NCBI GenBank assembly: GCA_964545125.1
Contig: CAZJEP010000005.1
Location: forward strand, 1,447-65,446
Reading direction: 5' to 3'
Length of the DNA stretch: 64,000 bases
From: an uncultured Gammaproteobacteria bacterium
GTDB lineage: Bacteria > Patescibacteriota > Patescibacteriia > Patescibacteriales > Patescibacteriaceae
A program made the position numbers and the translations under genes. Positions 25,229-48,907 of this stretch are shown here, one piece after another. The notes beneath the pieces are model-generated. The model was not told the origin of the DNA. It ran no database searches and saw nothing but the letters and a program-made list of their open reading frames with translations. Numbering within the stretch: position 1 is the first letter of the stretch; every line of letters begins with the position of its first letter.

Positions 25229-25876
25229 TTAAGGAAACAAAAGGGCCAAGATGTAACCAAGAAAACTTAGGGGGTCGACAATGGCCCAAACCAGCAAAAC
25301 AACCAAAACAGCAACCGCCAAGATAATAAACAGGGCCAGCAAATCCAATAAAATTAGTAACATAGCCTCAAAAATACCAATATTATCACCAAAAGTTTTT
25401 AGAGTTTTCTTGGCTTCTTTGTTGCCGGAAATAGCCACATTCAAACCGGGAAGATTTCTGGACCACTCATGACCCAACTTAGAAAAAAATTCACTGCCAG
25501 CCACCAAACGCATAAAAACATGAAGGTTGATATAAAGCAAAGTTAAACCCCAACTAGGAATTAAGTTCAACCAAGACTGTGCTAACAAACGGTCGGTGCC
25601 AAACCTAACAGGGGTTCCCAGAGCATTAACAGCGACCATCTCAGTTGTAGCCAGACTAACAGACATATTTTGTCGGGCCTGATGTCTAAGCGAACCCATG
25701 GCAGACTGTTTATCGTTACCTCGGTCTTTGGTAATGATTTTGTTTGTTTGTGCAGGCCTCTTGTTGCCAACAATCTTAATATTATTTTCAGATACATTTA
25801 AACTACGGCTAGCTCGCGCTTCCTGTCGTTGTCTCCTTAAATCATTGGCCAATTCCTGATCTGAATTTCCGACCAT
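25229..25876 (-). CDS. hypothetical membrane protein, first gene after the terminator
   Basis: Basic N-terminus and C-terminal TM helices. The track's start at 25978 lies inside the terminator hairpin, so I trimmed it to the ATG at 25876. Confidence 0.5.
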   Translation of the reverse strand: MVGNSDQELANDLRRQRQEARASRSLNVSENNIKIVGNKRPAQTNKIITKDRGNDKQSAMGSLRHQARQNMSVSLATTEMVAVNALGTPVRFGTDRLLAQSWLNLIPSWGLTLLYINLHVFMRLVAGSEFFSKLGHEWSRNLPGLNVAISGNKEAKKTLKTFGDNIGIFEAMLLILLDLLALFIILAVAVLVVLLVWAIVDPLSFLGYILALLFP

Positions 25877-25964
25877 AAAAAACTCTTTCTTTAATTTAAT
25901 TATATCACTATTTACCGGACCAAGCAAAGAGGAGAAAACGCGCAACGGCCAATATATAACCCGC

Positions 25965-26007
25965 AATAAAAAGGTCAAGCCCCGGCAATTAAGCTTGCCG
26001 GGGCTTG
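25965..26007 (-). terminator. strong intrinsic terminator downstream of the giant gene
   Basis: 13-bp stem caagccccggcaa / ttgccggggcttg with a 6-nt loop, followed on the minus strand by TTTTTATT. Confidence 0.75.
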
Positions 26008-29000: not shown

Positions 29001-32000
29001 TCCGGATTAACCGTATTGGGCTTGTCTTGGTTAAGACTGGTCTTGAGACGATAATTAACTAAAGCCTCCCTGATTTGCGCTCCAGCGGGCGGAGTAATAG
29101 TACAATCAGCGGGCTGATTATCCAGCAAAACACTGTTGTCAGCAAAAAAGGCCCCATCAATATAAAATTCTTCACTTTGTTTAACCGTCTTGACCTGATC
29201 GGTGGCCGTAATGATATTATCCTCACCCAAACGATGTAAACGAACTCGTCGCTGATTGCCAGGCGCATTGGGCTGATTGAGATTGACTGCCTTGGTGCAA
29301 GAAATAGTTATTTCGTTGGTAATGTTTTTTAAAACATACAAGGTGTCAAGTTTTAATTTAACTTTGCCGCTGACGACACCGGTCAGAAGATCATAATTAA
29401 CTTTGGATTCCGGATCAATATATTCCGTGCAACTGTTTTGATTGTCCGGACACAAGCCGGCATTGCCAAGCGTCTTACCGGTAGCGTCTTTCACAGCCAT
29501 ACCCACCGGCTGGACCTTGGCTTCACGCACTCCCAAACCGATAGTCTTGTCATAATCTAGCGGATCGCACCGTTCGTCATTGTCAATTAGCTGGCATTTG
29601 GTGCCGACCGAACAATCGGACTGGTTGTCGCAAGAAAATTTGCTGGCGCAATACTGATCGGCGCCGATGGTGACGCAATACTTGCCGTTACCGCAGACTT
29701 TACCGGTCTGAGCGTCAACCGGACAACCCTTGTCGGCGCTAACGCAATGACTGGTTTTTATTTTGTACCAAGCCGGCTCGCTGGCGCTAGACGGTTGTCG
29801 ATATTCGCAAGTGCGCAAACCAGGATCTTTAAAATAAGCTTCGCCTCCGCCTTCTAAACCCCAAGCCTCGCAACCGACCTGATCCTTGGAACACATGGTA
29901 TCTTTGTAATTATTGGGGTCGTTCAACAAATAAACATCCTTATAAGCCTCAGCCAAATCGTCGTATTGTCCTAAACGCGAACAGCCTTTGTCGGCCACCC
30001 GACATTCTTTGGTCTTTTCATAAACCACATAAGCAAAATTATCGGCTGGCACAACAATATTATTAAATCTTTCTTCGCCGTAAAAACTGGAATTATGAGT
30101 ATCAATCATTAATTCGCAACCAACCGCGCTATCTTGGCACAATTTATCAAAACCCTTGAGATTATGAGTTTTATCGGAGCGATCTTTGTACTGTTCACAA
30201 CCCAACATATACAGAGGAGCTGGATTACCAAATAAATCTTGGTTGCAAGAATCTGGGGTCGTCCAAGAATTTCTAATCAAATAATAAGTGTCGGACATTT
30301 CTAAAATCTTAATGTTGTCCAAACGCAAGTCAGCCCCCTGTCCGCCCAAAGTGAATTTTATTTTAGACGAAACGACGTCTTGTTCACCGGGGATGGTTAA
30401 ATCAAATTTATAATTTTTCCAATCGGCTGTGATATCAATATTATCGGCAAAAGCCTGATTAAAACCCGAGTCGCTTTCTATGGCAATCCTGGAAATATTG
30501 ACGTTGTCCGACTTCTTCTTGGCCGTAAAGCTTAAAACATATCTCTTGCCAATTTTTAAATTACTGGTAATGCTTCTTTCAATTTGAGATCCACCCGGTT
30601 TTAAAGAATGCCCGCCCACGGTTAAAGAATCCGAGACCATTTCCACTGGCGGTTTCGGGCCCCAACCGCTTAAGCTGCCCTCAAAAGTATCATAAAATAA
30701 AATTTTAATTTGATTGCCAAAATCACCCTCGTATTCACTACAACCAACCTCGCTAGCGCTACAAGTTTGACTCTTGGTGGGATCGGCCAAATAAACGCAA
30801 GCTTGGTGATCGTCCATCCAGACTCCGCCGTTAAGACAAACAATACAATTTAGTTTGTCGGCGTCCCAATGTCCCAGCTTAGCCTCGCAAGTGGCCTGGT
30901 CAGTAATAGAAACATCAATATTATTATTAACCAAACGATAAGGGTGGCACTCCTTGGAATAAGTGATAGTGGAGGCCATTAAGTGATAAGAAACATTGCC
31001 ATCACGGCCATAGAATTGACGACAATCGGAATTATACAACGGGTGGTCATAGGGTAAAGAATAAAGGGTTTCGTTACAGGCGTCGCCATCGTTGTTGTCG
31101 GCGGTATTGGTGTCGTCGATAGTGGCCGGCTGGCTAATGCCACTAGTTTTGTCCGGATTGGCCAACAACTGATAAACCACCAACTGATAACCAGACTCGT
31201 CCGAACCCTCCCAAGTATAAAACTCAGCATAAACATCATCCGGTTGGCCACAACGGCGGAACTTGGCAAAATACTGATTTTCTTCTCCGCCCGAGGGAAC
31301 TTTGTCCAAATTAACAAACAAAGAACAACCCACGGCATTGGCCTGACAAGTTTTGGCTGTCTTGGGAATAAAATATTCATCACGCGCCGAATAAAAATTA
31401 TTAGCTTTTTGAATAAAAGTGTCATAACCGACGCACTCGTTGGGGCAATAGTCTTTAGGCTTGACCTGGGCCGCCGTTTGATCTTTGGTGTTAACTTCGG
31501 TGTACAACTCGCAACCCACTTCATCGGCTTGGCACTTGCGAGCAAACTCGGAACACTTAGCCGGAGCATCTACTTTAAAGTTGAAATCTTTGTTTTTGTC
31601 TTGATAGCAAGCATCTTCCAAATAATTCGGCAAAAGTTTTTCGTACAGCAGGTTATCTAAACGGTAAGCGGAATATTGACCGCCACTACCCATTTCAAAC
31701 TTCATGTTGTCCACAAAAAATTCGGTGTCTGGACTAATGCCGGAAATTTTCCAGAAATCCATTTTGGCGGCATTGTCGTTGAGTAAGGTCAAAACCATAT
31801 TCTGCCATTCACCAGTGGCTGAAGAATAAATAACCTGGGCGTTGGCCGGATCGGCGCTGTTGCCCATGGTCATCTCCACACTGCCACTAACCACATAAAC
31901 GAAAGCCGACAGCGTATAGATACGATCAAAGTCAAAGGCAAATCCTCCGGGCAACAAACTTTTGTCGTCTGGACCGTAATAAACTCCACGTCTGCCCGCC

Positions 32001-34573
32001 GGCACTTTCAAACTCAAGCCTCCCTGATAAATTTGGTTGCCGGGAGTATTATTGACCAAATCTCCGGAAGCAGACCAACGAGCATCATCAGATGCTTCTA
32101 GTCCCCCATCGGCCAATAAATTAACACCGTTATCATCTTTGACTCTGATAAATTCATGACAACCTTCTTGTTTGTAAGCGCAAGCTCCGGTTTTGCGATT
32201 CAAATAAATATTTTGATTATTGAACCAATTAACCGTGTTGTCGGCCCCATTGTAAGTTCCATTATAAGAATATTCCTTGCAACCAATAGCTGATTGCTGA
32301 CAGCCGTAATCCAAAGTATTGGTTAGATAAGAAACTTTCTGTCCTTTGGGATTTTTGAAAGATTGACAAGTGCTAAACAAAGGATCGCAAGCCTCGTCTT
32401 GCCTGTTTTTATTAAAAATCCAAGAACGTTTTTCCTCGGCGCAATAGCCTCTAAACAAACAAGCGCCGTTGCGACCCTCTTTCAAACAGCCTTGTTCGTC
32501 GGCGCAATAATTATCGTTGCGGTTGACTAAAAGTTTTTGTTCATTGTAAGTGCAAGTAGCCTGGCAAGAAAAATTTCTCAATTCCTTTTCTTTGCCAGGA
32601 ATCATCAATTTGTCTCTGGCCCCCAATTCAGCCTCGGTGCAACAATCATCGTTGGTTTCGCAGGCGTCCAGTTTGCCGTCAACAATCATCCTGGTAGATC
32701 CGTTATCAGCCGAACAATACTTCAAGCCAGTTGTCATCAAGTCGGGATCTTTGACTAATTGCGGACCATAACCTTGGCGCGCGCAATAATATTCCGGCAC
32801 TTTCAAGACCCAGTTGGGATCAACCAAACCGCGACACCAAGGAGCGTCATAACCCCTAAAATTGTCATTAGTATTATAACAAGCCAATAAATCATTAAGA
32901 GTTATTCCCTCCGGCTTATCGGCAAAATCATTGGTTAAATATTTTTTCTGAATGGCTTGAGCGGCCACTTCCCATCCCACCGGTAAAATGCGATATTTTC
33001 TTAAAATAATCAGGGAACGATAAGGATAACCTTGGTTATAAGGAATTTTGTCTTCACCGTTTTTATCAAAACCAAAGGGCCAATTACCAGGCAGTTGGCC
33101 GGATCTGACCGCTTCGGCTACCGTCATTTTGTTTTCAATGGCCGTAGAAAATTCGTTGCCAATAACGCAGTCGGTGGGGCCGGGTCGATCCGGATTGGTA
33201 CAAGCGGTTAATTGTGCCAAGATATCTATTTTGCCACCAGCCGAAAATGTCGGTTCGGTTAATTTGCTGAGTCGGTTTTCAATGGCTTGCCGGCCGACCT
33301 GCTGACCAGTCCAATAACTCAAACTGCCACCTTGACTGCCCAAGTTGCTCATCAAGTTGGTCCAAGAACTGATAGCCCACTGATTTAAGAAAATATTGGC
33401 GGCATCCACCAAAATATCCCCGGTAATTTTGCCCAAATTATCCCACACCGCCTGATCGGCCAATTTCTTTCTCTCCTCGGCGCCATTGGGCGCTCCTTTA
33501 AGCAAACCGGCAAAATTAACATCATCTTTATAGCCATTCTTGGACGGCAAAGAAATTTGGTCGTTAATAACTTGCTTATTGCGATATTCAATTAAATTGC
33601 TGTTCAACAGAAAAGCGGCCCCCAAATCACTGCCGGTCGGATGAAAATTATCCGCCACATTTTCCAAAAAATCTTCACTGGCTAAACTTTTTTGACGCTC
33701 CCATTCGTTAACCCAGTTTTTTTTCATTTGGCTAAAACTACAATGAGTCTGCGAACCGTAATACTGGCTTAGACCCAAACCCAAACTAATCATCAAGGAA
33801 ACATTTAGGCTGGGGTTACAAATATTAAGTCTGGCTAAAGGACTATTAGCACCATTAAACATAGGCGCTCGACGAGCCTGCTCTACCGCGCCACCAGCAT
33901 TTTGCGAACAAGCATTATAAGTGGCCAAACAAGCGTTTAAACAAGCTGTGCTGGGTGGTCCTGATTGACTACAATTACTATCGCACCTTCCTTTGGCATC
34001 ACTACACAAACTCAAACCAGCGCTGACATCACCGCTACTATTCAAACAAACATTATAAGCGTCTTCACAGGCCTTGGTTTGCTCTGGAGTATAGGGGCCA
34101 GTGCCCAGCCGAGCATAACATTCCATTTTTTGCTTATCACAAATAACCTTGCTCTCCTTTTTAATATCTTCGGCAGCGATGTCGGAAATAATCGAATTGG
34201 CAAAACTTTCGATAAAATCACCGGCCGCTTGATCGGCAATATCCTCCCAATGATCTCCCCATTTTTTTTCAATGTATAGTTTTTCTTGTCCTTTGGCGCC
34301 GATGGCCAAATATTTAGCCGCGTCTACGGCCAAATCATTGATATATTTACGCAAAAGGTTTTGAAATAAAATAGTGGCCACCTTATTGCGAACATATTCC
34401 CAGGCAGTCTTAATCCAGTTGGCAGTGGCCGGAATATCCGCTACCACCGTCGTGGTATCCGCCACCCCCAAAATTGCCTCGGCTTGAGGCGCCAACAACA
34501 AATTAGACAATAAAATTAAACTAAAAAAAATTAAAGCAATTTTGAGTTTATGTTGCTTGGTGGTTTTAAACAT
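26036..34573 (-). CDS. giant (2845 aa) secreted cysteine-rich surface protein with three CBM/jelly-roll-like modules
   Basis: Uninterrupted 8.5 kb ORF with a signal peptide ...LLLAPQAEA. It has at least 9 copies of a C-x(4,5)-GC-x-x-aromatic motif, for example CQADEVGCELYTE and CSASEVGCSEYEG. Three modules end FFVDNMKFE, LRLDNIKILE and VYFDDVRLE. Confidence 0.85.
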   Translation of the reverse strand: MFKTTKQHKLKIALIFFSLILLSNLLLAPQAEAILGVADTTTVVADIPATANWIKTAWEYVRNKVATILFQNLLRKYINDLAVDAAKYLAIGAKGQEKLYIEKKWGDHWEDIADQAAGDFIESFANSIISDIAAEDIKKESKVICDKQKMECYARLGTGPYTPEQTKACEDAYNVCLNSSGDVSAGLSLCSDAKGRCDSNCSQSGPPSTACLNACLATYNACSQNAGGAVEQARRAPMFNGANSPLARLNICNPSLNVSLMISLGLGLSQYYGSQTHCSFSQMKKNWVNEWERQKSLASEDFLENVADNFHPTGSDLGAAFLLNSNLIEYRNKQVINDQISLPSKNGYKDDVNFAGLLKGAPNGAEERKKLADQAVWDNLGKITGDILVDAANIFLNQWAISSWTNLMSNLGSQGGSLSYWTGQQVGRQAIENRLSKLTEPTFSAGGKIDILAQLTACTNPDRPGPTDCVIGNEFSTAIENKMTVAEAVRSGQLPGNWPFGFDKNGEDKIPYNQGYPYRSLIILRKYRILPVGWEVAAQAIQKKYLTNDFADKPEGITLNDLLACYNTNDNFRGYDAPWCRGLVDPNWVLKVPEYYCARQGYGPQLVKDPDLMTTGLKYCSADNGSTRMIVDGKLDACETNDDCCTEAELGARDKLMIPGKEKELRNFSCQATCTYNEQKLLVNRNDNYCADEQGCLKEGRNGACLFRGYCAEEKRSWIFNKNRQDEACDPLFSTCQSFKNPKGQKVSYLTNTLDYGCQQSAIGCKEYSYNGTYNGADNTVNWFNNQNIYLNRKTGACAYKQEGCHEFIRVKDDNGVNLLADGGLEASDDARWSASGDLVNNTPGNQIYQGGLSLKVPAGRRGVYYGPDDKSLLPGGFAFDFDRIYTLSAFVYVVSGSVEMTMGNSADPANAQVIYSSATGEWQNMVLTLLNDNAAKMDFWKISGISPDTEFFVDNMKFEMGSGGQYSAYRLDNLLYEKLLPNYLEDACYQDKNKDFNFKVDAPAKCSEFARKCQADEVGCELYTEVNTKDQTAAQVKPKDYCPNECVGYDTFIQKANNFYSARDEYFIPKTAKTCQANAVGCSLFVNLDKVPSGGEENQYFAKFRRCGQPDDVYAEFYTWEGSDESGYQLVVYQLLANPDKTSGISQPATIDDTNTADNNDGDACNETLYSLPYDHPLYNSDCRQFYGRDGNVSYHLMASTITYSKECHPYRLVNNNIDVSITDQATCEAKLGHWDADKLNCIVCLNGGVWMDDHQACVYLADPTKSQTCSASEVGCSEYEGDFGNQIKILFYDTFEGSLSGWGPKPPVEMVSDSLTVGGHSLKPGGSQIERSITSNLKIGKRYVLSFTAKKKSDNVNISRIAIESDSGFNQAFADNIDITADWKNYKFDLTIPGEQDVVSSKIKFTLGGQGADLRLDNIKILEMSDTYYLIRNSWTTPDSCNQDLFGNPAPLYMLGCEQYKDRSDKTHNLKGFDKLCQDSAVGCELMIDTHNSSFYGEERFNNIVVPADNFAYVVYEKTKECRVADKGCSRLGQYDDLAEAYKDVYLLNDPNNYKDTMCSKDQVGCEAWGLEGGGEAYFKDPGLRTCEYRQPSSASEPAWYKIKTSHCVSADKGCPVDAQTGKVCGNGKYCVTIGADQYCASKFSCDNQSDCSVGTKCQLIDNDERCDPLDYDKTIGLGVREAKVQPVGMAVKDATGKTLGNAGLCPDNQNSCTEYIDPESKVNYDLLTGVVSGKVKLKLDTLYVLKNITNEITISCTKAVNLNQPNAPGNQRRVRLHRLGEDNIITATDQVKTVKQSEEFYIDGAFFADNSVLLDNQPADCTITPPAGAQIREALVNYRLKTSLNQDKPNTVNPDKGQVLFNERAFNGGKYSPLVWDVNASGVNRDGSEQAPQNASNDNENNANALLKVDPDRQCSAWLGCKSYTENPAKAGDKICYERGLCDQMNESGECIHFVSKDPATNQTYISGSAALDISNLTGYSKVGYEGNYWNADLYNLATMKQEGDAKVKFDGSFENAWQTDFVDFRTATTRAPIVSDAKVIEKELGFGSYKIIPDGRAVGKTNEFVVKEVTNAGNRQYIVSAYVFLRYGAKVELTVGRNLRQRGYDPDYECPFESINDTTANLCNATDADGASIPAAVLASTSVAGRWVRLTGKFSISNAYQRNLPSGLERDTRITIGIKPTAGLVYFDDVRLEPGLNIKDDGSANKIKQYLHSDCRLYPEGNAMSCDYFDDSGLRKKGWTGYCLEYDPKNSGTCLLWYPIDKVESEEYEEGVALNIPKDLYYCVDAYDGCNSSNKTQPEFQCQTFIKVDKESYWYSRIAQDSVYSIPANLLTNFKDSNNLTPTSSYFYADFGVNAGGKATDLVLNQQAGSGYYGAYSSLKPPLFDRLSAGNIRGKIMPFVPYYGISQAGLDKNVTGSERRAYCPGNLDSQKQEPLPIEVSDCNDCSKTDRDVSRDLGVYDDCFVGLAVIWEDGATCENNKCGTWSAKDRKCSTPRGPGGRDFQGNNKYEYITTTNQNGYRVWATNDLMPPLNAYVCYDPSYPRGNRHNQTKCELSKDNATSKFTGWATDYCLDARVCGDSASVGCLFECFNHTNFYRLASDIRDTSSDKTASKKRAVEAVKRLFTKVDNESPCYKWNGQSYDRNSASGCGIGNGQVDFALKNCDNNTRPEYNGSNNDYCLVSPTVPRVKLNDSLLSGDKYVLNDSGWVVINFASKIDKDQLPLKKYVINWGYQKNNHDVTLVRNVNMFERPDITNSHQVYYFLSYDEIKNGGGNCSHNNCQGLPSEIANNPAIDCCEIIPKIILTDNWGATNTFTPNSNPNAGPENHPFLDHPLVVWKNLQ

Positions 34574-34574
34574 A

Positions 34575-35312
34575 TTATTTATTAATCATAGAATGATACA
34601 TTTCTAATAATTGTTCGTCACTTATTTTACCTAAAGCATCTTTGTCTTCCTGTTTAGTAGCGGCCGAAATTAACTGGGAGCGCAAATATTGGGGATCGGG
34701 ATTGTCGCCAAAAGCCTGTTGTAAAGAACCGGCGCTGGCCGAATCAAGGGGCTGGATGGTAACAGGGGTGGTAACAGCTGAACCGTTAGTAGTGGCGCCA
34801 GAGCTATTAAATAAATCAACCGTCGTAGTAACGCCTGAACTAAGCTGTTCACTGCCGATAATCAAACCATCGGCGCTGCATTGTTTGCCTTCAGGACAAT
34901 TAGGGTTAGTGCTATTTTTAATTTCTTGCTGATCCGAAATACCGTCGCCGTCAGTATCCACCAAAAAAGGCGAAGTAAGATAAACGGTTAATTCTTGAAC
35001 ATCGGTCAAACCATCACCGTCCGTATCTTTGTTGTCGGAAGTAGCTAGTGGCGCTTGGTTGGCATTGTCGGCAGCCACTTTATTTTCAAAACTGGTCTTA
35101 CTCATACCTCCGTAAAAAGGGTAAGTAATATTTTTATTCAGCTCTCTGAACCAAAAAATTATGACAAGCAAGGTAAAACAAGACAAAACAGCCACACCAA
35201 TTTTTTGTTCTTTGGTTAGCCGTAAAGAGTGATTGAGATCCACCTGTTTGGGAGAACCTGCCTGTCCGGCGGGCAGGGATTGTAAATCACCAAAATTTGG
35301 CACTTGCGCCAT
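34575..35312 (-). CDS. membrane-anchored protein with thrombospondin type-3-like Ca-binding repeats
   Basis: One TM helix, then DNKDTDGDGLTDVQE and VDTDGDGISDQQE repeats. Its stop lies 1 nt from the giant gene's ATG. Confidence 0.6.
   Translation of the reverse strand: MAQVPNFGDLQSLPAGQAGSPKQVDLNHSLRLTKEQKIGVAVLSCFTLLVIIFWFRELNKNITYPFYGGMSKTSFENKVAADNANQAPLATSDNKDTDGDGLTDVQELTVYLTSPFLVDTDGDGISDQQEIKNSTNPNCPEGKQCSADGLIIGSEQLSSGVTTTVDLFNSSGATTNGSAVTTPVTIQPLDSASAGSLQQAFGDNPDPQYLRSQLISAATKQEDKDALGKISDEQLLEMYHSMINK
35257..35277. repeat. CCTGCC-N9-GGCAGG hairpin element, in frame in the CDS (encodes LPAGQAG)
   Basis: cctgcctgtccggcgggcagg. Confidence 0.8.
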
Positions 35313-39876: not shown

Positions 39877-40602
39877 ATGAATAATTATAACCAACCGACC
39901 CCTACTCTTAACCCCGCACAAAAGAAAAAAACCTGGATATTGATTGCGGTTATTTTGGGTCTCTTTGTTGTTCTGTCTTTATCTATGACCAAATTTGTCG
40001 GCAACAAAGTTGGTCAATTTTACAATTCGGAACAAGCCCGCACCTCCGCCGAAGCCACCGACAATCTGTATAACTCCGAGAAGCAACTTCGTTATGAGGG
40101 CTTGGATAATGTTTGGAATGTTTTTGGTAGCGCTAAACCAAAAATAACTATTGTCGAATTTGGAGATTTTACTTGTCATTACTGCAAAAACAATTATCCC
40201 GTCATCAGGGCCGTGACTATGCGCCACCAAGATACGGTGCAGTTAATTTTTCGCGATCGCACGCCCGACCAGCGCTCTCTCGGTTTGTCGCTAGTAGCGC
40301 AATGCGCCGGTGAACAAGGAAAATTTTGGGTCATGCACGATAAACTGTATCAAAACCAAAGCGATACTTTGGGCAACGACTTTGCGCAACTGCTGACTTT
40401 AGGGCAAAGCATTAATTTGGACGAAACCACTTTTCGTGATTGTTTAATCAAACAAAAATATTTAAGCAAAATCAAAAAAAACATGCAAAGCAGTTTGGAT
40501 TTGGGCATCAAGGGCACCCCGACTTTTTTCATTAACGGCAAAGAATACGTGGGAGAATTATCCGAAAGTCAACTAGAAGAAATAATTAAAGAATTAGAAT
40601 AA
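39877..40602 (+). CDS. membrane-anchored DsbA-family thiol:disulfide oxidoreductase
   Basis: N-terminal TM helix and a thioredoxin fold with FGDFTCHYCK (CxxC). Confidence 0.75.
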   Translation: MNNYNQPTPTLNPAQKKKTWILIAVILGLFVVLSLSMTKFVGNKVGQFYNSEQARTSAEATDNLYNSEKQLRYEGLDNVWNVFGSAKPKITIVEFGDFTCHYCKNNYPVIRAVTMRHQDTVQLIFRDRTPDQRSLGLSLVAQCAGEQGKFWVMHDKLYQNQSDTLGNDFAQLLTLGQSINLDETTFRDCLIKQKYLSKIKKNMQSSLDLGIKGTPTFFINGKEYVGELSESQLEEIIKELE

Positions 40603-40604: not shown

Positions 40605-41144
40605 ATGATTGAGATAAGAATCCATGGTTTAGGTGGACAAGGTGTCGTGACAATGTCAGAAATCTTGGCCTTGGCTTGTTACGAATCCGGCCGAGAAGTC
40701 CAAGTTTTTCCCTGGTTTGGTCCGGAACGCACTGGCGCGCCGGTTACCGGCTTTATTCGCCTAGACGACAAACCAATTCGCCTGCGCTCGCAAATTTACC
40801 AACCGGATATTATTATCGTTACCGATACCAGGCTTTTAAGCAAAATAAAAGTAGCCGAAGGAGCTAAACCAACAACTCGTTTGCTGATAGCCACACCTCA
40901 ATCCTGCTCCGAAACAGTCAAAACCATCAAATTAAAAAACGACCAAATAATTTGTTATAATGTCGAGTCGGTTACTACTGATAAACGTCTGGCCAACAGC
41001 GCTATTTTGGGTTTTGCGGCTAAAACTCTGAATTTAGCCAGTTTGGCTAATTGCCTAAAAGCCGTTAAAATAAAATTAAAATACAAAGACGTCCAAATCA
41101 TAAAGGCCAATCTTGAGGCTGTTACCAAGGGTTATGCCAGTTAA
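40605..41144 (+). CDS. porG: pyruvate/2-oxoacid:ferredoxin oxidoreductase gamma subunit
   Basis: IRIHGLGGQGVVTMSEILA...FPWFGPERTGAPV. Confidence 0.8.
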   Translation: MIEIRIHGLGGQGVVTMSEILALACYESGREVQVFPWFGPERTGAPVTGFIRLDDKPIRLRSQIYQPDIIIVTDTRLLSKIKVAEGAKPTTRLLIATPQSCSETVKTIKLKNDQIICYNVESVTTDKRLANSAILGFAAKTLNLASLANCLKAVKIKLKYKDVQIIKANLEAVTKGYAS

Positions 41145-42300
41145 TAAATACGCTAAACAATTATTAAATACTTCCGAGGCAATCGCTTTGACAATCAGCC
41201 GTATCGGTGTGGGCGTAGTCAGTGCCTATCCAATTACTCCTCAAACCAAAATCGTAGAAGGCTTAGCTAAAGCTCAAAACGCTAGAACCAATAAATATGA
41301 ATTTATCCGCGCGGAAAGCGAGTATGCCGCTGCCTCTATTGCTTTGGGCGCCAGCGCCGGTGGAGCCCGGGCTTATACCGCCACCAGCTCGCAAGGATTA
41401 TTGTTCATGCTCGAGGTACTTTATAACATCGGAGGGCTTGGTTTGCCGGTAGTCATGACATGCGCTAATCGGGCCATCAGCGCTCCTTTAAATATTTGGA
41501 ATGATCACCAAGATGCTTTTGCTATGCGTGATGCCGGTTGGCTGATGTTTTTTGCGGAAAGCGCCGAAGAAGCCAGTGCTCAACACATTTTAGCCTATAA
41601 GTTGGCGGAAAAATTACATTTGCCGGTCGCTGTTAATGTGGATGGTTTTATTTTGACTCATACTAGCGAACCAACTTTTGTTCCGACTCGCGAACAAATT
41701 AAAAAATTTTTGCCGGCCTTCAAACCTCAAACCAACAATGTTTTAGACGTTAAGCATCCGGTTAGTATCGGCCAGTTGGTTCTACCCCAAGATTATCAAG
41801 CCTTCCGCCAAAAATTAAACGAAACGCTGAATAACAGCGCCAAAGTTATCAACCAAGAGCAGGCGCTTTATCAAAAAATGTTCTGCCACCAAGCCAGTCA
41901 TGATTTAAATAACGGCCTTATTGAATATTATGGTCCGAGGTCAGCTAAAATTATTGTGGTGGCCATGGGTTCGGTAGCCGGCACCATCAAAACCGCTCTA
42001 GATGAATACAACCAACGCAAATTAAATCTAAAAAAAGCCGCCCTACTAAGAATAAAAACTTTCCGCCCTTGGCCAACCAAAGCTGTCCAAAAACTAACCC
42101 AGGGAAAAAAAATTATTGTTGTAAACAAAGGCCTAAGTCCTGGTTCTTTGCCTCCCCTATCCCTGGAGGTAGCGGCTAGCGTTTCGGGTAAAATGGACAT
42201 ACTTCATGCGGTGGCTGGTTTAGGAGGAAGAGACATTACAGTTGAGCATATTTTACGTTTAATAAAAAACAAAAATAAACAAAAGTTCTTGTTTGTTTAG
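41134..42300 (+). CDS. porA: pyruvate/2-oxoacid:ferredoxin oxidoreductase alpha subunit
   Basis: GVVSAYPITPQT motif, about 390 aa. Start trimmed to the ATG at 41134, overlapping porG by 11 nt. Confidence 0.8.
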   Translation: MPVNKYAKQLLNTSEAIALTISRIGVGVVSAYPITPQTKIVEGLAKAQNARTNKYEFIRAESEYAAASIALGASAGGARAYTATSSQGLLFMLEVLYNIGGLGLPVVMTCANRAISAPLNIWNDHQDAFAMRDAGWLMFFAESAEEASAQHILAYKLAEKLHLPVAVNVDGFILTHTSEPTFVPTREQIKKFLPAFKPQTNNVLDVKHPVSIGQLVLPQDYQAFRQKLNETLNNSAKVINQEQALYQKMFCHQASHDLNNGLIEYYGPRSAKIIVVAMGSVAGTIKTALDEYNQRKLNLKKAALLRIKTFRPWPTKAVQKLTQGKKIIVVNKGLSPGSLPPLSLEVAASVSGKMDILHAVAGLGGRDITVEHILRLIKNKNKQKFLFV

Positions 42301-42428: not shown

Positions 42429-43262
42429 ATGTCTAAAATCTTCCTAATTCCCACCGGCATTTTTCTATCGTCTTTGGTCGTGTTTAATGTCGCTCAAGCT
42501 GCCAATGACCTTTATTTCACCCCGCAGATTTCCATTCCGGGTAGCGACTTCCAATCGCAACAACAAATTTTGATAAAAAACGACACCAGTTTAATTTGCG
42601 ACTATATTATTGCTGTTTACAAATACGCCATTGCTATCGTGGGCGTCTTGGCAGTGGTCTCAATAGCTATCGGTGGAACGATCTGGATTCTGTCGTCCGG
42701 TAGCAGCAGTATGGTCGGCACCGCCAAAGACTGGATTTTCTCCGGACTCATCGGTTTAATTTTGGCTTTAGGTTCTTTTATGTTGTTGGCTACCATTAAC
42801 AAAGATCTGGTTACCTGCCAAATCTCAAGCGTTCAAGACATAGCCAAAATCAACCAAACCCCTCAACCAACAACCACTGGAAACAACCCTAACAACACCC
42901 CCAACAACAACAATCCCATTAAAGACACTAGCAAAGATTTTGCTAAATACTTTGGCTGTTGCACCTTGTCAAGCGGTTCTTCGCAAACGCTTACCGAAAA
43001 AACGTGTACCGAAAATGGCGGAAGTTGGCAAGCTGATAGTTTCGTTGAAAATAACAAGTGCGTCAAAGGAGCAAATTGTTGCGTGGGAGACGACATGAAT
43101 CATTGGTCTCTTTTCGGCAAGCCGACTTTTAATATTATGATACCCACCAACGCCACCAGCGACAAAGACTGCAAACAACCAGCCAGTTTTTCAGCAAAAA
43201 TTAATTACTGGGACTTGGTAAAAAGTCCTTGCTCGTCCATTGTCGCTAGCGTAACCCCCTAA
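42429..43262 (+). CDS. VirB2-like pilin hairpin with a Cys-rich C-terminal extension
   Basis: Signal peptide, then YKYAIAIVGVLAVVSIAIGGTIWILSSGSSSMVGTAKDWIFSGLIGLILALGSFMLLATIN (two TM helices). An N/P/T-rich linker and a domain of about 110 aa with 9 Cys follow. Confidence 0.55.
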   Translation: MSKIFLIPTGIFLSSLVVFNVAQAANDLYFTPQISIPGSDFQSQQQILIKNDTSLICDYIIAVYKYAIAIVGVLAVVSIAIGGTIWILSSGSSSMVGTAKDWIFSGLIGLILALGSFMLLATINKDLVTCQISSVQDIAKINQTPQPTTTGNNPNNTPNNNNPIKDTSKDFAKYFGCCTLSSGSSQTLTEKTCTENGGSWQADSFVENNKCVKGANCCVGDDMNHWSLFGKPTFNIMIPTNATSDKDCKQPASFSAKINYWDLVKSPCSSIVASVTP

Positions 43263-43284
43263 CCTTAAAAACTGTTATTGACCC

Positions 43285-44028
43285 ATGCTGACAAAAATAA
43301 AAAAAATATTATACAAAAAAGTTAAGCCCGTTGTCGGTTACTCGATTTTGGGAGTTATGTTATTTTTAACCGCTTTGCTTGGTTATGATGCCTACAATTC
43401 CGACTTGCTTTTTTTTAATCCCAACCCCGTCACCGAACCAACGGTTTATCCTCTAAGTCCCAAAGAATATAAACAGGCCTTGCTGGAACAAAAACCGATT
43501 GAAACCTTAAGCATGGGAACGCATAACGGCAAACCTAATTTCAAAGACAACATCAAAAAATACGACGGTCTTTTTAAAGAGGCGGCCAAAAAATACAAAG
43601 TTGATTGCACCTTAATAAAAGCTACTATGTTGGCTGAATCACGAGGTAACGCCAAAATCAGAAGCGGAGTCGGCGCGGTTGGCTTAATGCAATTAATGCC
43701 GGCCACGGCGCGCGCTATGGGCTATGGTGGCAATCTTACCGATCCGCGCGTCAACATCATGGCCGGAACCAAATATATGGCGCACTTAAAAGAACGCGGT
43801 TGTCACGAAAAACCGGCCAACGAAGTTTGCGACGTTAAAAAAGACGTTAAATATCGTCTAGCCGCCTATAACGGTGGGCCAAAATGCAATCAACCGGGCA
43901 ACGGCAAGTGTTCCCGACAAACCGCCTGGGAGTGTATTTATTACGATGCCTACGGCCAAACCAGACACTATGTCAATAGAGTTAAGGCTAATTACGAAGA
44001 ACTAAAAAATAAGGGTTGGGGATGCTGA
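43285..44028 (+). CDS. lytic transglycosylase (SLT domain, VirB1-like)
   Basis: LIKATMLAESRGNAKIRSGVGAVGLMQLMPATARAMGY, with an N-terminal TM anchor. Confidence 0.8.
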   Translation: MLTKIKKILYKKVKPVVGYSILGVMLFLTALLGYDAYNSDLLFFNPNPVTEPTVYPLSPKEYKQALLEQKPIETLSMGTHNGKPNFKDNIKKYDGLFKEAAKKYKVDCTLIKATMLAESRGNAKIRSGVGAVGLMQLMPATARAMGYGGNLTDPRVNIMAGTKYMAHLKERGCHEKPANEVCDVKKDVKYRLAAYNGGPKCNQPGNGKCSRQTAWECIYYDAYGQTRHYVNRVKANYEELKNKGWGC

Positions 44029-44138
44029 AAAAGTTCTAAATTTTAAGTTTAAAATTTCAAGTGAAACAACTTTACCCAAAAAACTTAAAACTTAAGCCTT
44101 GAAACTTGAAACTTAAGACACACCTTATCCATAACTAA

Positions 44139-44747
44139 ATGAAAAAAATATTGCTGGCTATCTTAATAATTTCCGTGGCTATTTTGTTGCTTTTCTGGCC
44201 TCTCTCTGGTTGGCAAGGGCCTAAAATAAAATTATTTGCGAAATTATTAACCAAATCCATTGAAAACGTGCGTGAAGATTATGCCAAAAAATCTTGCACC
44301 GAATTTAACAAACAAGAATTGAAACAAGGATATTTTGATGCTCTTGTTACCGGCTATTGCAAACCCAGTCCGGAAAATTTCACCAATCGCGCCGATTTTC
44401 TGTGCGCCGTCGGACTTAATTGTTCCTGCCCCAACGGACGAGATGAAACGGCCGGCTGCGCCCTAGAAGGATCCTTGACTTGGTCTCCCTGTAAAGAATT
44501 TGATAATAAAACTATTCCCTATTGCCATCAGACGGCCACTGGCGCCGAGCCAAAACCTGGCGATGTGGCCGCGGACTGGAATTGTTTTGCTAAAAATTCT
44601 ACCATTAACATTAATAATCAAAATTACCATGTAACCGACAAGGGTTCAGCTATTACCGGGAGGCGCGCCGATATTTGGTTTGCTAATTGTCAAGACGCCT
44701 TTAAAGTAATGGGGATATATAAGGTGGCTATACCAAATAAATTTTAA
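44139..44747 (+). CDS. 3D-domain (MltA/RlpA-like double-psi beta-barrel) cell-wall protein
   Basis: VTGYC...TATGAEPKPGDVAADWN...YHVTDKGSAITGRRADIWF. Confidence 0.6.
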   Translation: MKKILLAILIISVAILLLFWPLSGWQGPKIKLFAKLLTKSIENVREDYAKKSCTEFNKQELKQGYFDALVTGYCKPSPENFTNRADFLCAVGLNCSCPNGRDETAGCALEGSLTWSPCKEFDNKTIPYCHQTATGAEPKPGDVAADWNCFAKNSTININNQNYHVTDKGSAITGRRADIWFANCQDAFKVMGIYKVAIPNKF

Positions 44748-44758
44748 ATTAAAATACC

Positions 44759-46414
44759 ATGTTACTAAATAACATTAAAAAAATATATTTACCGACCTTA
44801 ATCTTTTTACTCTTGACCCCTAGCTTAGTTTTGGCAGCCGACAACGATATTATCTGCCCCGAAGCTCAGGCCACAGAGGTTCTGGTTTATTTTCATGGCC
44901 TCACCCACAACGACCACTCCATTTATGTCAACAGCTTAAACACCTTTAAGTCAGAATTAGCAAAAATAAAAAATCAACGACCAGGCGTGGCCGGCATCCA
45001 TGTCAACAACGAAGCCAACGGAGGCAACTGGAAAGGGGTCAAGGTTAACGTCAGCGCTCTGGTTGACCAAGTCAAGAATAAATGTGGCGTTCAGGCTGGC
45101 GCTAATTTTTACACCACTATCGCCGGCCATAGCGCCGGTGGCTATGCCGTTATTAACAACGCCAATTCAGCCAGCAAAATTATTATTTTAGACGGTATGT
45201 ATTGGCCGGCCGATCCCCTGTTTGACAAGTGTTCCAAGATTAGCGTCATCGGAGGATCCGTGGCCGGTAATGGCGGGACCAAAGACCAAACAACTAGATT
45301 AATAAATAAATGCTATGGAACCAGTGGCTTTAATTCCATAGCCAACAGCGACGGTAAAATCAGCCATGACGGCACTCGCGCCTATTTATCCTCTTTCTAC
45401 CTAAATTCTTCCGGAGTTGTCAGTGTGTCCTCGCCTAATACTAGTCAAAATCAAAATAAAACAAATTCAACATTTAATGTTTCTTTGCCGATGATTAAAA
45501 ACCCCTTCGACAGTTTGCAGGTAATGATTCCGGGCATGCCCAGATTTTCGGACGCTGTTATTAGCGGTTCTGGCAACAATATGAAAATTACCATCAACTG
45601 GATAGGCGAATACATCATGGGAATTTATAATTACGCTATCGGCGTTATCGGTATTTTTTCGGTGGTGGCCATTGCCATTGGCGGCACCATGTGGATTTTG
45701 TCTTTTGGCAATCCGGGTCAAATCATTATCGCCAAGGAATGGATTCTTGGCGCCATTTTGGGCTTGGTATTGGCCCTGGGGTCATATATCCTGCTCAACA
45801 CTATCAATGACGATCTAATTCAAATGAAACCAATAGAATTGGCTTATATTCAAAGAATTGAAGATCCGGGCGATAATGGTTCTGGCGGCGATTACTACCA
45901 TGTCGGTCCTAACCAGGTCGGTCAACCTTACAGCGGTCAAGATCCGAATAATCCTTGTCCGGCCAGCACTCTCCCTGATTTAACGCAATATTATGCTTAC
46001 AAAGCTAACCCTCCTCTTATTTATAGTCAGGATCCTAATAAACGAAGACAGGCGGGATATTGTGATTGCTCCTCGTTCTCTCAACACCTGGCTATTTGTT
46101 CCAGAGCCAATGCTATTGCCGGCGAAGGTCGCACCATAAATTTATTTAAAGATGTCAGTAACAATCGCGAAGAAATCATGGACTGCGACAATCCTCCTAA
46201 AATGTCTCCAGGAGACATTTTTGGCTACTACAGCGATAGCAAAGAAAGAGGCCACGTCTTAACTTACATTGGCAATGGCCAATACATCGAATGTGGCGGT
46301 GAATTCAAAGGCAACACACAAACCCGGGGAGCTATTAAAATTGGCCCCTTTAGAGAAAGATGTTTATCATACAAAAAAAACAATAACATTAAACTCTTCT
46401 TTATTAGTCGATAA
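44759..46414 (+). CDS. tri-partite protein: alpha/beta-hydrolase-like domain, pilin-type two-TM hairpin, and NlpC/P60-like cysteine peptidase
   Basis: N-terminal part has VLVYFHGL and TIAGHSAGGYA (GxSxG). The middle has YNYAIGVIGIFSVVAIAIGGTMWILSFGNPGQIIIAKEWILGAILGLVLALGSYILLNTIN. The C-terminal part has GYCDCSSFSQHL and GHVLTYIGNGQYIECGG. Confidence 0.6.
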   Translation: MLLNNIKKIYLPTLIFLLLTPSLVLAADNDIICPEAQATEVLVYFHGLTHNDHSIYVNSLNTFKSELAKIKNQRPGVAGIHVNNEANGGNWKGVKVNVSALVDQVKNKCGVQAGANFYTTIAGHSAGGYAVINNANSASKIIILDGMYWPADPLFDKCSKISVIGGSVAGNGGTKDQTTRLINKCYGTSGFNSIANSDGKISHDGTRAYLSSFYLNSSGVVSVSSPNTSQNQNKTNSTFNVSLPMIKNPFDSLQVMIPGMPRFSDAVISGSGNNMKITINWIGEYIMGIYNYAIGVIGIFSVVAIAIGGTMWILSFGNPGQIIIAKEWILGAILGLVLALGSYILLNTINDDLIQMKPIELAYIQRIEDPGDNGSGGDYYHVGPNQVGQPYSGQDPNNPCPASTLPDLTQYYAYKANPPLIYSQDPNKRRQAGYCDCSSFSQHLAICSRANAIAGEGRTINLFKDVSNNREEIMDCDNPPKMSPGDIFGYYSDSKERGHVLTYIGNGQYIECGGEFKGNTQTRGAIKIGPFRERCLSYKKNNNIKLFFISR

Positions 46415-46424: not shown

Positions 46425-47294
46425 ATGACAAAAAATCTTAATTTATTAAGCAATGAACATAGCGCTTGCGCGGGTTGCGGGCAAATTATCGCCTCGCGCG
46501 TGGTGGTTAATACTTTAGGACCAAACACCGTGGTTATTAATGCGACGGGCTGTCTGGAAGTTACCACCTCGCAATATCCTAGTTCGGCCTGGAAACTTCC
46601 CTGGATTCATTCTTTGTTTGCCAATCCAGCTCCTTTGGCCTCCGGGGTTTTGGCGGCTTTGCGACAGCAAAAAAAATCAGCCAAAATCTTAGTTCAGGCC
46701 GGCGATGGCTCCACTTTTGATATCGGCTTTGGCGCGGTTAGCGGCATGTGGGATCGAGGCGATGATATTATTTATGTTTGTTATGACAATGAGATTTACG
46801 CCAACACCGGCATGCAGGCTTCGGCCGCCACACCCTATGGCAGTCGCACTTCCACTACTCCTTATGGCAAACTCTTAGACGGACACAAAAAAAATATGGT
46901 AGAAATCGCCTTATCACACGGTTTGAAATATGTGGCGCAAACTACCGCTGGTTTTATTGACGACTTGAAAGATAAGGTCATTAAAGCCAGCCTTACCAAA
47001 GGTCCGAGTTATATTCAAATCCTCTCCCCTTGTATCCCTGGCTGGTCGGTGGCCATCGCCGAATCGATTAAAGTGGCCCAATTAGCCGCGTTGACCGGTC
47101 TTTACCCTGGTTTGGAATACGTCAACGGCGAATTAACCAAAGTTATTAAGGTCACCAAACCACAAATTAAAGTTTGGGAATACTTGCAATATCAATCACG
47201 CTTTCGCCATTTAGCTAAAACCAAAGAAGGACAAGCTATTTTAGCAGAACTACAAGCCCTGGCTGATAGTAATATCAAAAAATATGGATTATAG
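46425..47294 (+). CDS. porB: pyruvate/2-oxoacid:ferredoxin oxidoreductase beta (TPP-binding) subunit
   Basis: CAGCGQIIASR, TGCLEV and GDGSTFDIGFGAVSG. Start trimmed to the ATG at 46425, 10 nt after the preceding stop. Confidence 0.8.
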   Translation: MTKNLNLLSNEHSACAGCGQIIASRVVVNTLGPNTVVINATGCLEVTTSQYPSSAWKLPWIHSLFANPAPLASGVLAALRQQKKSAKILVQAGDGSTFDIGFGAVSGMWDRGDDIIYVCYDNEIYANTGMQASAATPYGSRTSTTPYGKLLDGHKKNMVEIALSHGLKYVAQTTAGFIDDLKDKVIKASLTKGPSYIQILSPCIPGWSVAIAESIKVAQLAALTGLYPGLEYVNGELTKVIKVTKPQIKVWEYLQYQSRFRHLAKTKEGQAILAELQALADSNIKKYGL

Positions 47295-47404: not shown

Positions 47405-48907
47405 TTATAATTTGATACACTTATTGGCCACACAATCTGGTTGGTTAGAATCAAGGCAATCTCCGCACAACAGGGTTCCGCCACAACCGTCAGCCAAGCG
47501 CCCACATTCAGCTTGACTAGACTGACAATCGGCTGGATTGCAAACCTTGATCGTACCCTTGGTTGAACCGACATTGCCATAAATATCACTAACAGTAATT
47601 TCTAAATCAAAAAATTCGTAGGCTCTACCCGGAGACAAATCAATGCTCTTGGCCACCAAAGCTTTTTGATTGTCAAAATTTTTAATATCTTCCAATTTTA
47701 AACCAGGTTTACTGTTGTCAGACCAGCGCCAGCCACGCCTATACCAATCGTTCCAATCAGCGGTAATTCTTAGGCTACTCCAATCAATCGGGTAGTCGCT
47801 ATTAACCGCCAAATAATCCCTAAACGAACCTTCCCTGGCGTTAAGCGTCCCTAAAATAATATTAATCGTACTAGGATTAGGTAGTTTAATAGGATTGCCC
47901 AAACAATTAAGATCTTCGGGTATACCGGCATATTTGGTTTCAAAATTGGCGCAAAACAAATAAACATTTGTTTTGGGGTCCCAAGAATAAGCAAAAGCCA
48001 AAGAACCTTCAGGGAAATAATCCGGGTAAATAAAACTGGAAGCATATTTTTTATCGACTTCGTTCCAGCAAGTAACGCTGTCAAAGCTGGCTGGACAGTT
48101 TTGCAACCTATTGACCGGATCCTGAGGCAGCTTATAACCTAAAGTCTTACCCAGGGTTTCATTCCAGCTCGGCCAAACGGAAATGGATTTATTGGGCAAA
48201 TAAGAACCGGAAGGCAATCCAGGATACTTTTTGTTTTTTCCATTATAAACTTCAAAAGCTATTTTAGCTTCTCTCATATCAGCCATTCTCTTAACATCAC
48301 GCACCAACTTAGCCTTGACACTATCGCAGTATTGACCATAAGAACATTCGTCCGACAAAAGACATTTCTTAACACAAAAAAAGTTACCACTACCGTCGTC
48401 TTCGCAAGAATTGTCTATAAACTTTCCAGTACAACCCTTGGCCATGTCACAAGATTCGGTGCTTTTTGGCTGGCAAATTCCCGGACCGGTTTTATCCACC
48501 AAATCGGCGTTAAACTTCCAATACTGCAATAATTGTCCAAAAATGTCCCTGGTTTCGTCAGTGGCTTGTTGATTAAAGGAAATAATATAAATATTGGTAT
48601 ACAGCATATCAGGCGACCAGTTGGGAGTTTGAGCTGGCACCACATTAGCGGCATTAACATATACCGTGCGACCGTCGCGCACCGCTTCATAGCCGTTGAC
48701 AATCAACGACTGAGGGGCGCCCTTAATATCCACATTGTCGTAATACCAGGCCAAAGGAGATTCGTGATCAGGATTGGGCATCACCCGGACGGCAATCGCG
48801 TCAGGCGAAGAATCCGTCGCCGCATTAATCGACCAAAACGATAAAAATAAACCTAAACAAAAAAATAGGGTTAATAAATTTAATTTGTTGCTAATACTAG
48901 AAAGCAT
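47405..48907 (-). CDS. secreted hypothetical protein with Cys-rich central and C-terminal segments
   Basis: Signal peptide, and a C-terminal CNPADCQSSQAECGRLADGCGGTLLCGDCLDSNQPDCVANKC. Confidence 0.5.
   Translation of the reverse strand: MLSSISNKLNLLTLFFCLGLFLSFWSINAATDSSPDAIAVRVMPNPDHESPLAWYYDNVDIKGAPQSLIVNGYEAVRDGRTVYVNAANVVPAQTPNWSPDMLYTNIYIISFNQQATDETRDIFGQLLQYWKFNADLVDKTGPGICQPKSTESCDMAKGCTGKFIDNSCEDDGSGNFFCVKKCLLSDECSYGQYCDSVKAKLVRDVKRMADMREAKIAFEVYNGKNKKYPGLPSGSYLPNKSISVWPSWNETLGKTLGYKLPQDPVNRLQNCPASFDSVTCWNEVDKKYASSFIYPDYFPEGSLAFAYSWDPKTNVYLFCANFETKYAGIPEDLNCLGNPIKLPNPSTINIILGTLNAREGSFRDYLAVNSDYPIDWSSLRITADWNDWYRRGWRWSDNSKPGLKLEDIKNFDNQKALVAKSIDLSPGRAYEFFDLEITVSDIYGNVGSTKGTIKVCNPADCQSSQAECGRLADGCGGTLLCGDCLDSNQPDCVANKCIKL

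Follow-up and report, generated by a model that had tools for sequence, protein, structure and literature searches.

How does a cell whose type IV secretion system (T4SS) cluster holds no wall hydrolase open a passage for its pilus, and could hydrolases encoded elsewhere on the chromosome do the cutting? The question is raised by a 64,000-nucleotide (nt) stretch of contig CAZJEP010000005.1 (assembly GCA_964545125.1; 'the window' hereafter denotes this whole stretch), in which four consecutive genes (A, B, C and D) are predicted to encode wall-lytic enzymes together with two hairpins of pilin type. These genes had been likened, in a first-pass annotation of the DNA, to the VirB1/PrgK-type wall-remodelling function that a virB4 cluster of the same window lacks. 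We find that the cassette is the variable middle of a conserved dsbA-por operon in an ABY1-type Patescibacterium, and we consider the chances about even (a probability of roughly 0.5) that, as the best explanation of the whole, it supplies wall cutting for the VirB4 machine, with the hairpins of A and D serving as minor pilus subunits. The four genes and the three parts of D (the latter delimited by motifs, models and alignments) are as follows.

42429-43262, plus strand: gene A, 277 amino acids (aa); signal peptide, VirB2-like two-helix hairpin, tail with nine cysteines
43285-44028, plus strand: gene B, 247 aa; predicted N-terminally anchored SLT (GH23-type) lytic transglycosylase
44139-44747, plus strand: gene C, 202 aa; N-terminally anchored 3D-domain (MltA/YuiC-like) protein
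44759-46414, plus strand: gene D, 551 aa; signal peptide, predicted alpha/beta-hydrolase, pilin hairpin, NlpC/P60-type cysteine peptidase
44846-45403, plus strand: alpha/beta-hydrolase of D, approximately residues 30-215 (Foldseek, motifs)
45479-45853, plus strand: pilin hairpin module of D, residues 241-365 (sub-threshold PF18895 match; modelled helices 281-314 and 319-349)
45896-46411, plus strand: NlpC/P60-type cysteine peptidase of D, approximately residues 380-551 (Foldseek, motifs)

The plus-strand open reading frames (ORFs) of the cassette lie at exactly the coordinates first assigned to them (42429-46414), and the four domain assignments were upheld by Pfam, by AlphaFold2 (AF2) models compared through Foldseek, and by alignments. 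The cassette is far more than a chance assembly, as homologue expectation values (E) range from 1e-50 to 1e-99 and dozens of genomes share the gene order. Export signals are present on all four proteins, each of which has an N-terminal hydrophobic signal peptide or signal anchor (judged by hydropathy and, for signal peptides, also by AXA sites) and 7-11 cysteines. The catalytic residues, whose loss on alignment would have weakened the proposed T4SS link, are present in B, C and D.

Gene B matches SLT (PF01464) at 75.8 bits (cut-off 21.3), and its E118 (in the motif LAES) aligns with the catalytic glutamate motif of known enzymes (Q-E-S of MltF and T-E-S of 9b45, a phage tape-measure lytic transglycosylase domain). 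The pair E118-S119 is invariant in six orthologues, orthologue identity amounts to 61-73%, and the protein has seven cysteines and a C-terminal KGWGC. The match of gene C to 3D (PF06725) is borderline (22.8 bits, cut-off 23.8), and is accompanied by matches to an SpsC model (E 6.5e-5) and to YuiC (4wlk, E 0.037); its D146, D167 and D178 align with aspartates of Bacillus subtilis YuiC (4wlk) and are invariant in 5-6 orthologues (10 cysteines, orthologue identity 57-80%). B and C are thus predicted to be membrane-tethered lytic transglycosylases of different folds. Since SLT and 3D are two folds for one lytic-transglycosylase reaction, the three peptidoglycan-cleaving chemistries originally proposed were an overstatement, although the enzyme domains themselves are real; as judged from sequence, the cassette combines two wall chemistries of proven type (glycan cleavage and cysteine peptidase/amidase) with an esterase-fold domain.

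The AF2 model of D (mean predicted local distance difference test, pLDDT, of 80) shows three folded parts (approximately residues 30-215, the hairpin at 281-349, and approximately 380-551). For the first of these, Foldseek returned esterases, thioesterases and lipases at E 1e-4 to 1e-3, with a template modelling score (on the target) of at most 0.65, and the motifs H46-G47, G-H-S125-A-G-G, D145 and H203 (candidate triad S125-D145-H203) are kept in six homologues; we predict an alpha/beta serine hydrolase with a GxSxG elbow and a Ser-Asp-His triad. A word-indexed homologue search with the N-terminal 235 residues of D found nothing, and homologues surfaced only through the exhaustive hairpin search described below. 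The C-terminal part has as its top Foldseek match a phage endolysin (8tw1, E 1.2e-4, 139 columns) and scores under the cut-off against NlpC/P60 (PF00877, 14.5 bits, cut-off 23); the residues D-C437-S, G-H499-V and E511 are kept in the homologue alignment (A4), an orthologue (P0005) carries the NCBI source name 'NlpC/P60 family protein', and NlpC/P60 Pfam matches occur in 10 hairpin relatives (best E 4.5e-7). The architecture of esterase, hairpin and hydrolase recurs with other heads in P0045, P0084, P0098, P0178, P0185 and P0018.

In gene A, the predicted cleavage of the signal peptide lies after AQA24 (an AXA-type site), the helices of the hairpin span approximately residues 53-88 and 93-123, and the tail (residues 129-277, that is 149 residues past the hairpin) contains nine cysteines from C130 to C268. 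The AF2 model, with a pLDDT of 77-88 in the hairpin and 25-36 in the tail, is usable for the hairpin only, and the tail has no match in any related locus examined. The N-terminal 130 residues are kept across 16 orthologues, with C57 and C130 near-invariant in this close orthologue set. These two cysteines (nt 42597-42599 and 42816-42818) lie outside the cell on either side of the hairpin, and are candidates for a disulfide clamp that would join its ends, by loose analogy with the head-to-tail cyclisation of TrbC/VirB2. In D-type relatives a cysteine pair is often found before helix 1 in place of such a flanking pair. At syntenic loci the A-type proteins match the T4SS_pilin family (PF18895) in 23 of 27 cases and carry an enzyme domain in only one of the 27; the A-type heads are variable, cysteine-rich and almost never enzymatic.

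The pilin identity of the hairpins was judged against two pilin genes of the window that score above the PF18895 threshold.

5269-6225, minus strand: canonical T4SS_pilin gene, 318 aa; C-terminal pilin module, PF18895 44.7 bits
6218-6613, minus strand: canonical T4SS_pilin gene, 131 aa; PF18895 44.2 bits

The hairpins of A and D align with both, and share with the canonical pilins a signal peptide, two hydrophobic Gly/Ala-rich helices, a short loop with a conserved Ala-Lys, and the motif GG..W..(S/A)GN. We searched exhaustively with the 125-residue hairpin module of D against 1.84 billion cluster representatives (50% identity clusters) and obtained 13,023 clusters at E<=1e-3 and 2,773 at E<=1e-10. 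PF18895 was matched (E<=1e-3) by 109 of the 125 nearest cluster representatives and by 45 of the 50 D-type proteins at syntenic loci; among the relatives as a whole, a few also matched TrbC/VirB2 (PF04956). We conclude that the hairpins of A and D are, by homology, a VirB2-like, pilin-type unit. Their predicted topology is N-out/C-out, and therefore every appended domain would lie outside the membrane, on the exterior of the cell. As side observations, the 318-aa pilin has a domain of approximately 240 aa N-terminal to its pilin module, both pilin genes adjoin recG, and a 249-aa ORF next to them (6688-7437) has no Pfam match.

The canonical PF18895 pilins (PMC12102498; the pilin arrays of Wang et al. 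2023) measure approximately 100-185 aa and stop right after helix 2 (after 5-6 residues in the canonical pilins of the window), whereas A and D run through a conserved INxDL-type motif after helix 2 into heads of 150-190 aa (149 residues past the hairpin in A, approximately 186 in D). D has an N-terminal enzyme domain of approximately 190 aa besides, and both genes stand outside any virB4-adjacent pilin array. In the D-type proteins the break lies just past the conserved ...LLNTINxDLV..P motif, near residue 365.

The closest relatives (L004-L007) were compared with the window part by part. Their identity to the window reaches 86% for PorB, 79% for PorA, 80% for C, 73% for B and 75% for DsbA, falls to 59% for the hairpin part of A and 63% for that of D, and the heads of A and D are without match. 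Among the relatives at large the D hairpin is 55-70% identical (PorB 68-86%), the C-terminal head of D is detectable only in L001, L002 and L011, and its esterase-fold domain only in L011. The heads found at the D position are the following.

NlpC/P60: the window, L001, L002, L011
SLT: L003, P0007, P0013
VanY: L009
Peptidase_M15_4: L010, P0009
C39-like cysteine peptidase: L004-L007, P0014

Over the 50 D-type syntenic proteins, 11 Pfam wall-hydrolase families were counted (PF18895, TrbC and DUF2165 excluded), namely SLT, VanY, NlpC/P60, M15, SLT_3, 3D, C39_2, M15_4, M15_3, Phage_lysozyme and Amidase_5. The same breadth is met in the larger hairpin family, where the 125 best matches (one protein may match several families) include SLT 14 times, NlpC/P60 10, VanY 9, 3D 8, M15 6, M23, C39_2 and SLT_3 4 each, M15_4 and M15_3 3 each, SLT_2 2, and Glucosaminidase and Lysozyme-like once each. 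Sequence comparison thus indicates that heads are exchanged among close relatives, with hairpins and flanking genes conserved. In the literature searched, no description of pilin-hydrolase fusions was found, an absence that does not prove them undescribed.

The SLT head of one such fusion (P0012) is 48% identical to B. The head of the pilin-SLT fusions shows approximately 48% identity to every B orthologue, its own neighbour included, and shares the C-terminal KGWGC; it is, on sequence grounds, an old paralogue of B, and a recent duplication of B within the locus was rejected as its source, the identity being alike to all B orthologues.

The exchange of heads bears on whether the cassette might simply hold housekeeping autolysins, in which the hairpin would be a two-helix anchor recruited for remodelling of the cell's own wall (growth, septum splitting, turnover) with no role in a T4SS. 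B and C, which unlike the heads of A and D do not vary among relatives, have experienced strong purifying selection and retain every catalytic residue, and the set of lytic transglycosylase, endopeptidase and carboxypeptidase is like a normal autolysin repertoire. In housekeeping enzymes, however, swaps of chemistry (NlpC/P60, SLT, VanY, M15_4, C39-like) at a PorB identity of 68-86% would be unexpected, and so would A-type heads that are non-enzymatic, hypervariable and rich in cysteine, or an anchor that is specifically of pilin type. We regard this explanation as doubtful, with the evidence of gene neighbourhood still to be added to both of its sides.

The pattern of a constant carrier whose C-terminal heads differ between orthologous loci also brings to mind surface effectors independent of the T4SS and evolving like polymorphic toxins, the hairpin displaying wall-degrading (possibly also lipid-degrading) heads against the envelope of a host or competitor, with nutrient release. 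The phage-type lysin heads (Phage_lysozyme and Amidase_5) and the esterase/lipase-fold domain of D would suit such a function, and lytic transglycosylases and phospholipases have been proposed as the means by which Patescibacteria attack the host envelope (PMC11665869). Yet no cognate immunity gene lies beside any swapped head, a membrane-tethered head on a linker of approximately 20-50 residues would need to get to the host through the cell's own wall and S-layer, the delivery route is undemonstrated, and B and C are invariable. We consider effectors of this kind unlikely.

The flanking genes place the cassette in an operon of the order dsbA-porG-porA-[A-B-C-D]-porB.

39877-40602, plus strand: membrane-anchored DsbA-like thioredoxin, first gene of the operon; Thioredoxin_4 82.7 bits, DSBA 50.9 bits
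40605-41144, plus strand: porG, 2-oxoacid:ferredoxin oxidoreductase subunit; Pfam POR, POR_N and PFOR_II across porG/porA
41113-42300, plus strand: porA, 2-oxoacid:ferredoxin oxidoreductase subunit, upstream of the cassette
46425-47294, plus strand: porB, TPP (thiamine pyrophosphate)-binding beta subunit; TPP_enzyme_C; likely ATG 11 nt past the stop of D

The four genes are consecutive, as first described, but they form no free-standing unit, being embedded between porA and porB behind dsbA. Loci were scanned with one genome per species, using the closer alignment set A5 (A2 being too diverse), which yielded 47 loci; the dsbA-por-pilin operon, or a reduced dsbA-pilin-pilin form, recurs in these 47 species-level genomes. 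In nearly all of them dsbA is followed by a pair of pilin-like genes, with por genes either present ahead of the pair or absent; the Patescibacteria group, Falkowbacteria, Parcubacteria and Komeilibacteria appear in the record titles (several others read 'bacterium' or bear other names). The most constant partner is dsbA (directly upstream of the pilin or por genes in 34-36 of the 47 loci, many of the remainder being short contigs), and porG/porA occupy this place in L002-L007, in L010 and in many of L013-L048. In relatives, leuS and an exo/endo-phosphatase gene, both on the minus strand, precede dsbA, and a gene for a 500-aa protein, fpg and pfkB, again on the minus strand, follow porB. The por genes are split by pilin/hydrolase genes in at least 20 species; a few have porB before the second pilin gene, and others are without por.

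The intergenic gaps from dsbA to porB hold no plus-strand terminator-like site, three plus-strand sites lie inside porG, D and porB, and the first strong terminator-like hairpin follows porB, in a scan whose yield was not above shuffled expectation. The 500-aa protein (47405-48907, minus strand) is cysteine-rich, has a signal peptide and no Pfam match, and lies convergent to porB in all close relatives at 43-64% identity. Small PDDEXK_3 and 23S_rRNA_IVP/bAvd-like genes were seen inside the cassette of L010 (4862-5278 and 8993-9382) and inside the virB4 cluster of L008 (6519-6908 and 9577-9924), whereas the window has none. They resemble small selfish insertions to which these operons are tolerant.

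Given that the cassette interrupts an operon, we weighed whether it could be what remains of a mobile element, or of a prophage lysis module, that had entered the por operon. The best solved-structure match of B (the phage tape-measure domain), the endolysin-like fold at the C-terminus of D, and the PDDEXK_3 and 23S_rRNA_IVP genes inserted in one relative all lend some colour to this origin. Against it, the GC content of the cassette equals that of its surroundings, flanking direct or inverted repeats are absent, no integrase or phage structural genes lie nearby, and vertical conservation of the arrangement extends to dozens of species that share just 50-60% identity with the window in their flanking proteins; the explanation is largely refuted, and we give it hardly any credence. 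As to the variability of the heads, a repeat search over 39-49 kb was negative for insertion-element ends, for duplicated target sites and for template/variable repeat pairs as in a diversity-generating retroelement, and an origin through mobile elements or such retroelements was rejected on the absence of these repeats.

The T4SS-like cluster, to which the cassette had been linked, comprises the following.

15422-25978, minus strand: the cluster as a whole, with VirB4, a TrsD/TraC-like protein, PrgI, a 202-aa gene and four further genes without assignment
16230-18161, minus strand: VirB4, 643-aa ATPase (Pfam)
18201-18872, minus strand: TrsD/TraC-like protein, 223 aa; TraC/TrsD-like N-terminal homologue
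19384-19854, minus strand: PrgI (Pfam)

The function of VirB4 is here split between the 643-aa ATPase and the separate 223-aa TraC/TrsD-like protein, and in most Patescibacteria VirB4 is likewise divided into two genes (PMC12102498). ComFC (14656-15444) and the 202-aa gene lie directly downstream of the VirB4 genes, and ComFC and RecG flank the cluster, which fits the pattern reported for ABY1, where comF, recG and radA stand beside T4SS genes (PMC12102498). Pfam found no wall hydrolase in the cluster (15-26 kb), confirming the gap that had been noted there. VirB1 homologues are poorly associated with virB4 outside Paceibacteria, and most pilin-bearing Patescibacteria are without a detectable VirB1 near virB4, from which it was inferred that pilus biogenesis may dispense with VirB1 (PMC12102498); we argue that the fusion of hydrolases to pilin-like proteins offers a simpler reading of this absence. 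S. epibionticum, whose T4SS locus was found by experiment to be essential, offers a comparison: one gene next to its virB4 encodes a protein that combines two lysozyme-like domains with a cysteine-proteinase domain, and another encodes an M15B-like peptidase; the PF18895 pilins of that species are small and its hydrolases are separate genes, and the enzyme families beside its virB4 are those fused to hairpins in the lineage of the window.

Gene order on a larger scale points in the same direction. On the 120-kb contig of a relative the cassette locus and the virB4 cluster are both present, in the relative order seen in the window. An extended synteny (giant CBM protein, TSP3 protein, ksgA, leuS, exo/endo-phosphatase, dsbA) is widely kept, and leads directly into the virB4 cluster in the window, L006 and L008. 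A distant group has dsbA, pilin-VanY, radA and recG in this order, with comFC and the 202-aa gene (the one abutting virB4 in the window) after them; the locus thus remains, in two gene arrangements, within the wider virB4/recG/radA/comF neighbourhood, a placement near T4SS-flanking genes that the autolysin explanation would not lead one to expect. In the distant relatives L045 (7879-9072) and L052 (6864-8135) the gene before dsbA encodes a PD40/beta-propeller protein, and the one after pilin-VanY is radA (sms). A 2,845-aa ORF with CBM_4_9 (26036-34573, minus strand) abuts the T4SS cluster next to a bacterial TSP3-repeat protein (34575-35312, minus strand); both are kept at the same position in L006, L008, L015, L030 and L042, and are possibly a pair of giant surface adhesins. 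Co-occurrence of virB4 and the cassette is uninformative because virB4 is present in 2,417 of 3,035 Patescibacteria assemblies (approximately 80%).

Several observations weigh against a part for the cassette in pilus assembly. It lies 24 kb from virB4 in the window with housekeeping genes between, and in none of the 47 related loci, scanned over 10-kb flanks, is virB4, PrgI or another gene of the cluster found within 10 kb (the distance in the window itself being greater than these flanks). This separation, together with a chromosomal and deeply conserved position among leuS, ksgA, por, fpg and pfkB, and with the absence of an immunity gene, agrees with the autolysin explanation. The cassette appears to be co-transcribed with a metabolic enzyme, which is unexpected for a T4SS accessory module. 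Moreover, the hairpins of A (18.6 bits, residues 62-114) and D (20.2 bits) both score below the curated PF18895 cut-off of 26.6 bits, and a pilus in which each subunit bore a head of 150-230 residues would be difficult to pack. Against PDB sequences the hairpin profile recovered no solved T4SS pilin, only spurious matches to designed 'Pizza' propellers, and Foldseek gave no significant match for the model of A (the Aeropyrum pernix conjugation pilin 8dfu ranked second, at E 1.2, beside ATP-synthase subunit c). Adjacent to the swapped heads there is no immunity gene, porB following D after 11 nt in the window and being the next gene in the relatives too. Finally, the incorporation of A and D into a pilus, their dependence on VirB4 and the identity of the wall to be cut are proposals. 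We consequently hold the T4SS link to be plausible and unproven: a cluster devoid of hydrolases, the enzyme families of S. epibionticum and the wider synteny uphold the VirB1/PrgK-like role first suggested, and the 0 of 47 loci with a T4SS gene nearby count against it.

On the assumption that the cassette does serve the VirB4 machine, the following sequence of events may be envisaged. DsbA, from the head of the operon, would fold the ectodomains oxidatively, and the cassette would provide the VirB1/PrgK-type wall cutting missing from the cluster 24 kb off, B and C opening the cell's own sacculus. The VirB4/TrsD/PrgI machine would extract A and D from the membrane, with the hairpin as handle, and place them as minor subunits within or at the end of a pilus made of small canonical pilins. 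The enzyme of D and the cysteine-rich (possibly binding) head of A would then be positioned where the filament crosses walls, and cutting would be concentrated where it crosses the cell's own wall and, probably, that of the host.

Which wall is the target is a question on which the evidence is divided. That the host wall might be cut, as was also surmised at first, is consistent with the swapping of D heads in close relatives, which a neutral interchange of hole-making enzymes would explain equally well. Head swapping and heads of phage-lysin type favour a foreign, variable wall; with no immunity genes and a tether this short, the cell's own is favoured, or at least no foreign one is required. 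We can only tentatively entertain a bolder version of the pilus proposal, in which the hairpin would be an export and delivery module, a VirB4-polymerised pilus would carry interchangeable wall-lytic (possibly lipolytic) heads to the host envelope, assembly would itself be effector delivery, and the dsbA-pilin locus would be a polymorphic warhead locus matched to host walls; in this version the INxDL motif after helix 2 might serve as a cleavage site at which the head is set free.

Among known systems, the hydrolases VirB1, PrgK, TraG (of pIP501), TcpG and CD419 come closest, in that they too pair a membrane-tethered SLT with a papain-like cysteine peptidase (CHAP or NlpC/P60) in monoderms with MPF-FATA-like T4SS. 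In the cassette, on the other hand, the activities are spread over three genes, far from virB4 and within the dsbA-por operon (these hydrolases are recognised by a location near T4SS genes, which neither the window, at 24 kb, nor the 47 loci, over 10-kb flanks, show), the anchor is a pilin hairpin and not a single N-terminal helix, and the enzyme domain is swapped in close relatives. Polymorphic toxin loci (Rhs, CdiA-CT, LXG; the type VI secretion effectors Tae/Tge and the Xanthomonas T4SS effectors X-Tfe) have a conserved N-terminal carrier and unrelated C-terminal heads, many of which target peptidoglycan. The cassette likewise has a conserved carrier with a variable C-terminal enzymatic head at orthologous loci, but it is without an adjacent immunity gene, its carrier is an integral-membrane hairpin, and delivery into other cells is undemonstrated. 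In modular type IV pilins (the bimodular PilB and PilC of Streptococcus sanguinis), adhesive modules are grafted on the pilin and displayed by the filament. A functional module is similarly grafted onto a pilin moiety here, with the difference that the type IV pilins have a class III signal peptide and adhesive modules, and the proteins of the cassette a VirB2-like hairpin and wall-lytic ones. To our knowledge, these unrelated type IV pilins are the sole precedent for the grafting of modules on pilins.

In the only species of Patescibacteria so tested (S. epibionticum), epibiotic growth requires the T4SS, whereas a 2025 survey of the whole phylum found most pilin-bearing genomes to be without a VirB1-type hydrolase near virB4. 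The locus described here offers a testable answer to the missing VirB1, namely that in ABY1-type lineages hydrolases are fused to pilin-like hairpins in a dsbA-led operon. Sister species hold different wall chemistries at the same position, and the hairpin family is very large. Should host walls be what the heads cut, the locus would open a way to study host range and the breaching of hosts by ultra-small epibionts; should the target be the cell's own wall, the locus would show how a monoderm builds a pilus through its sacculus.

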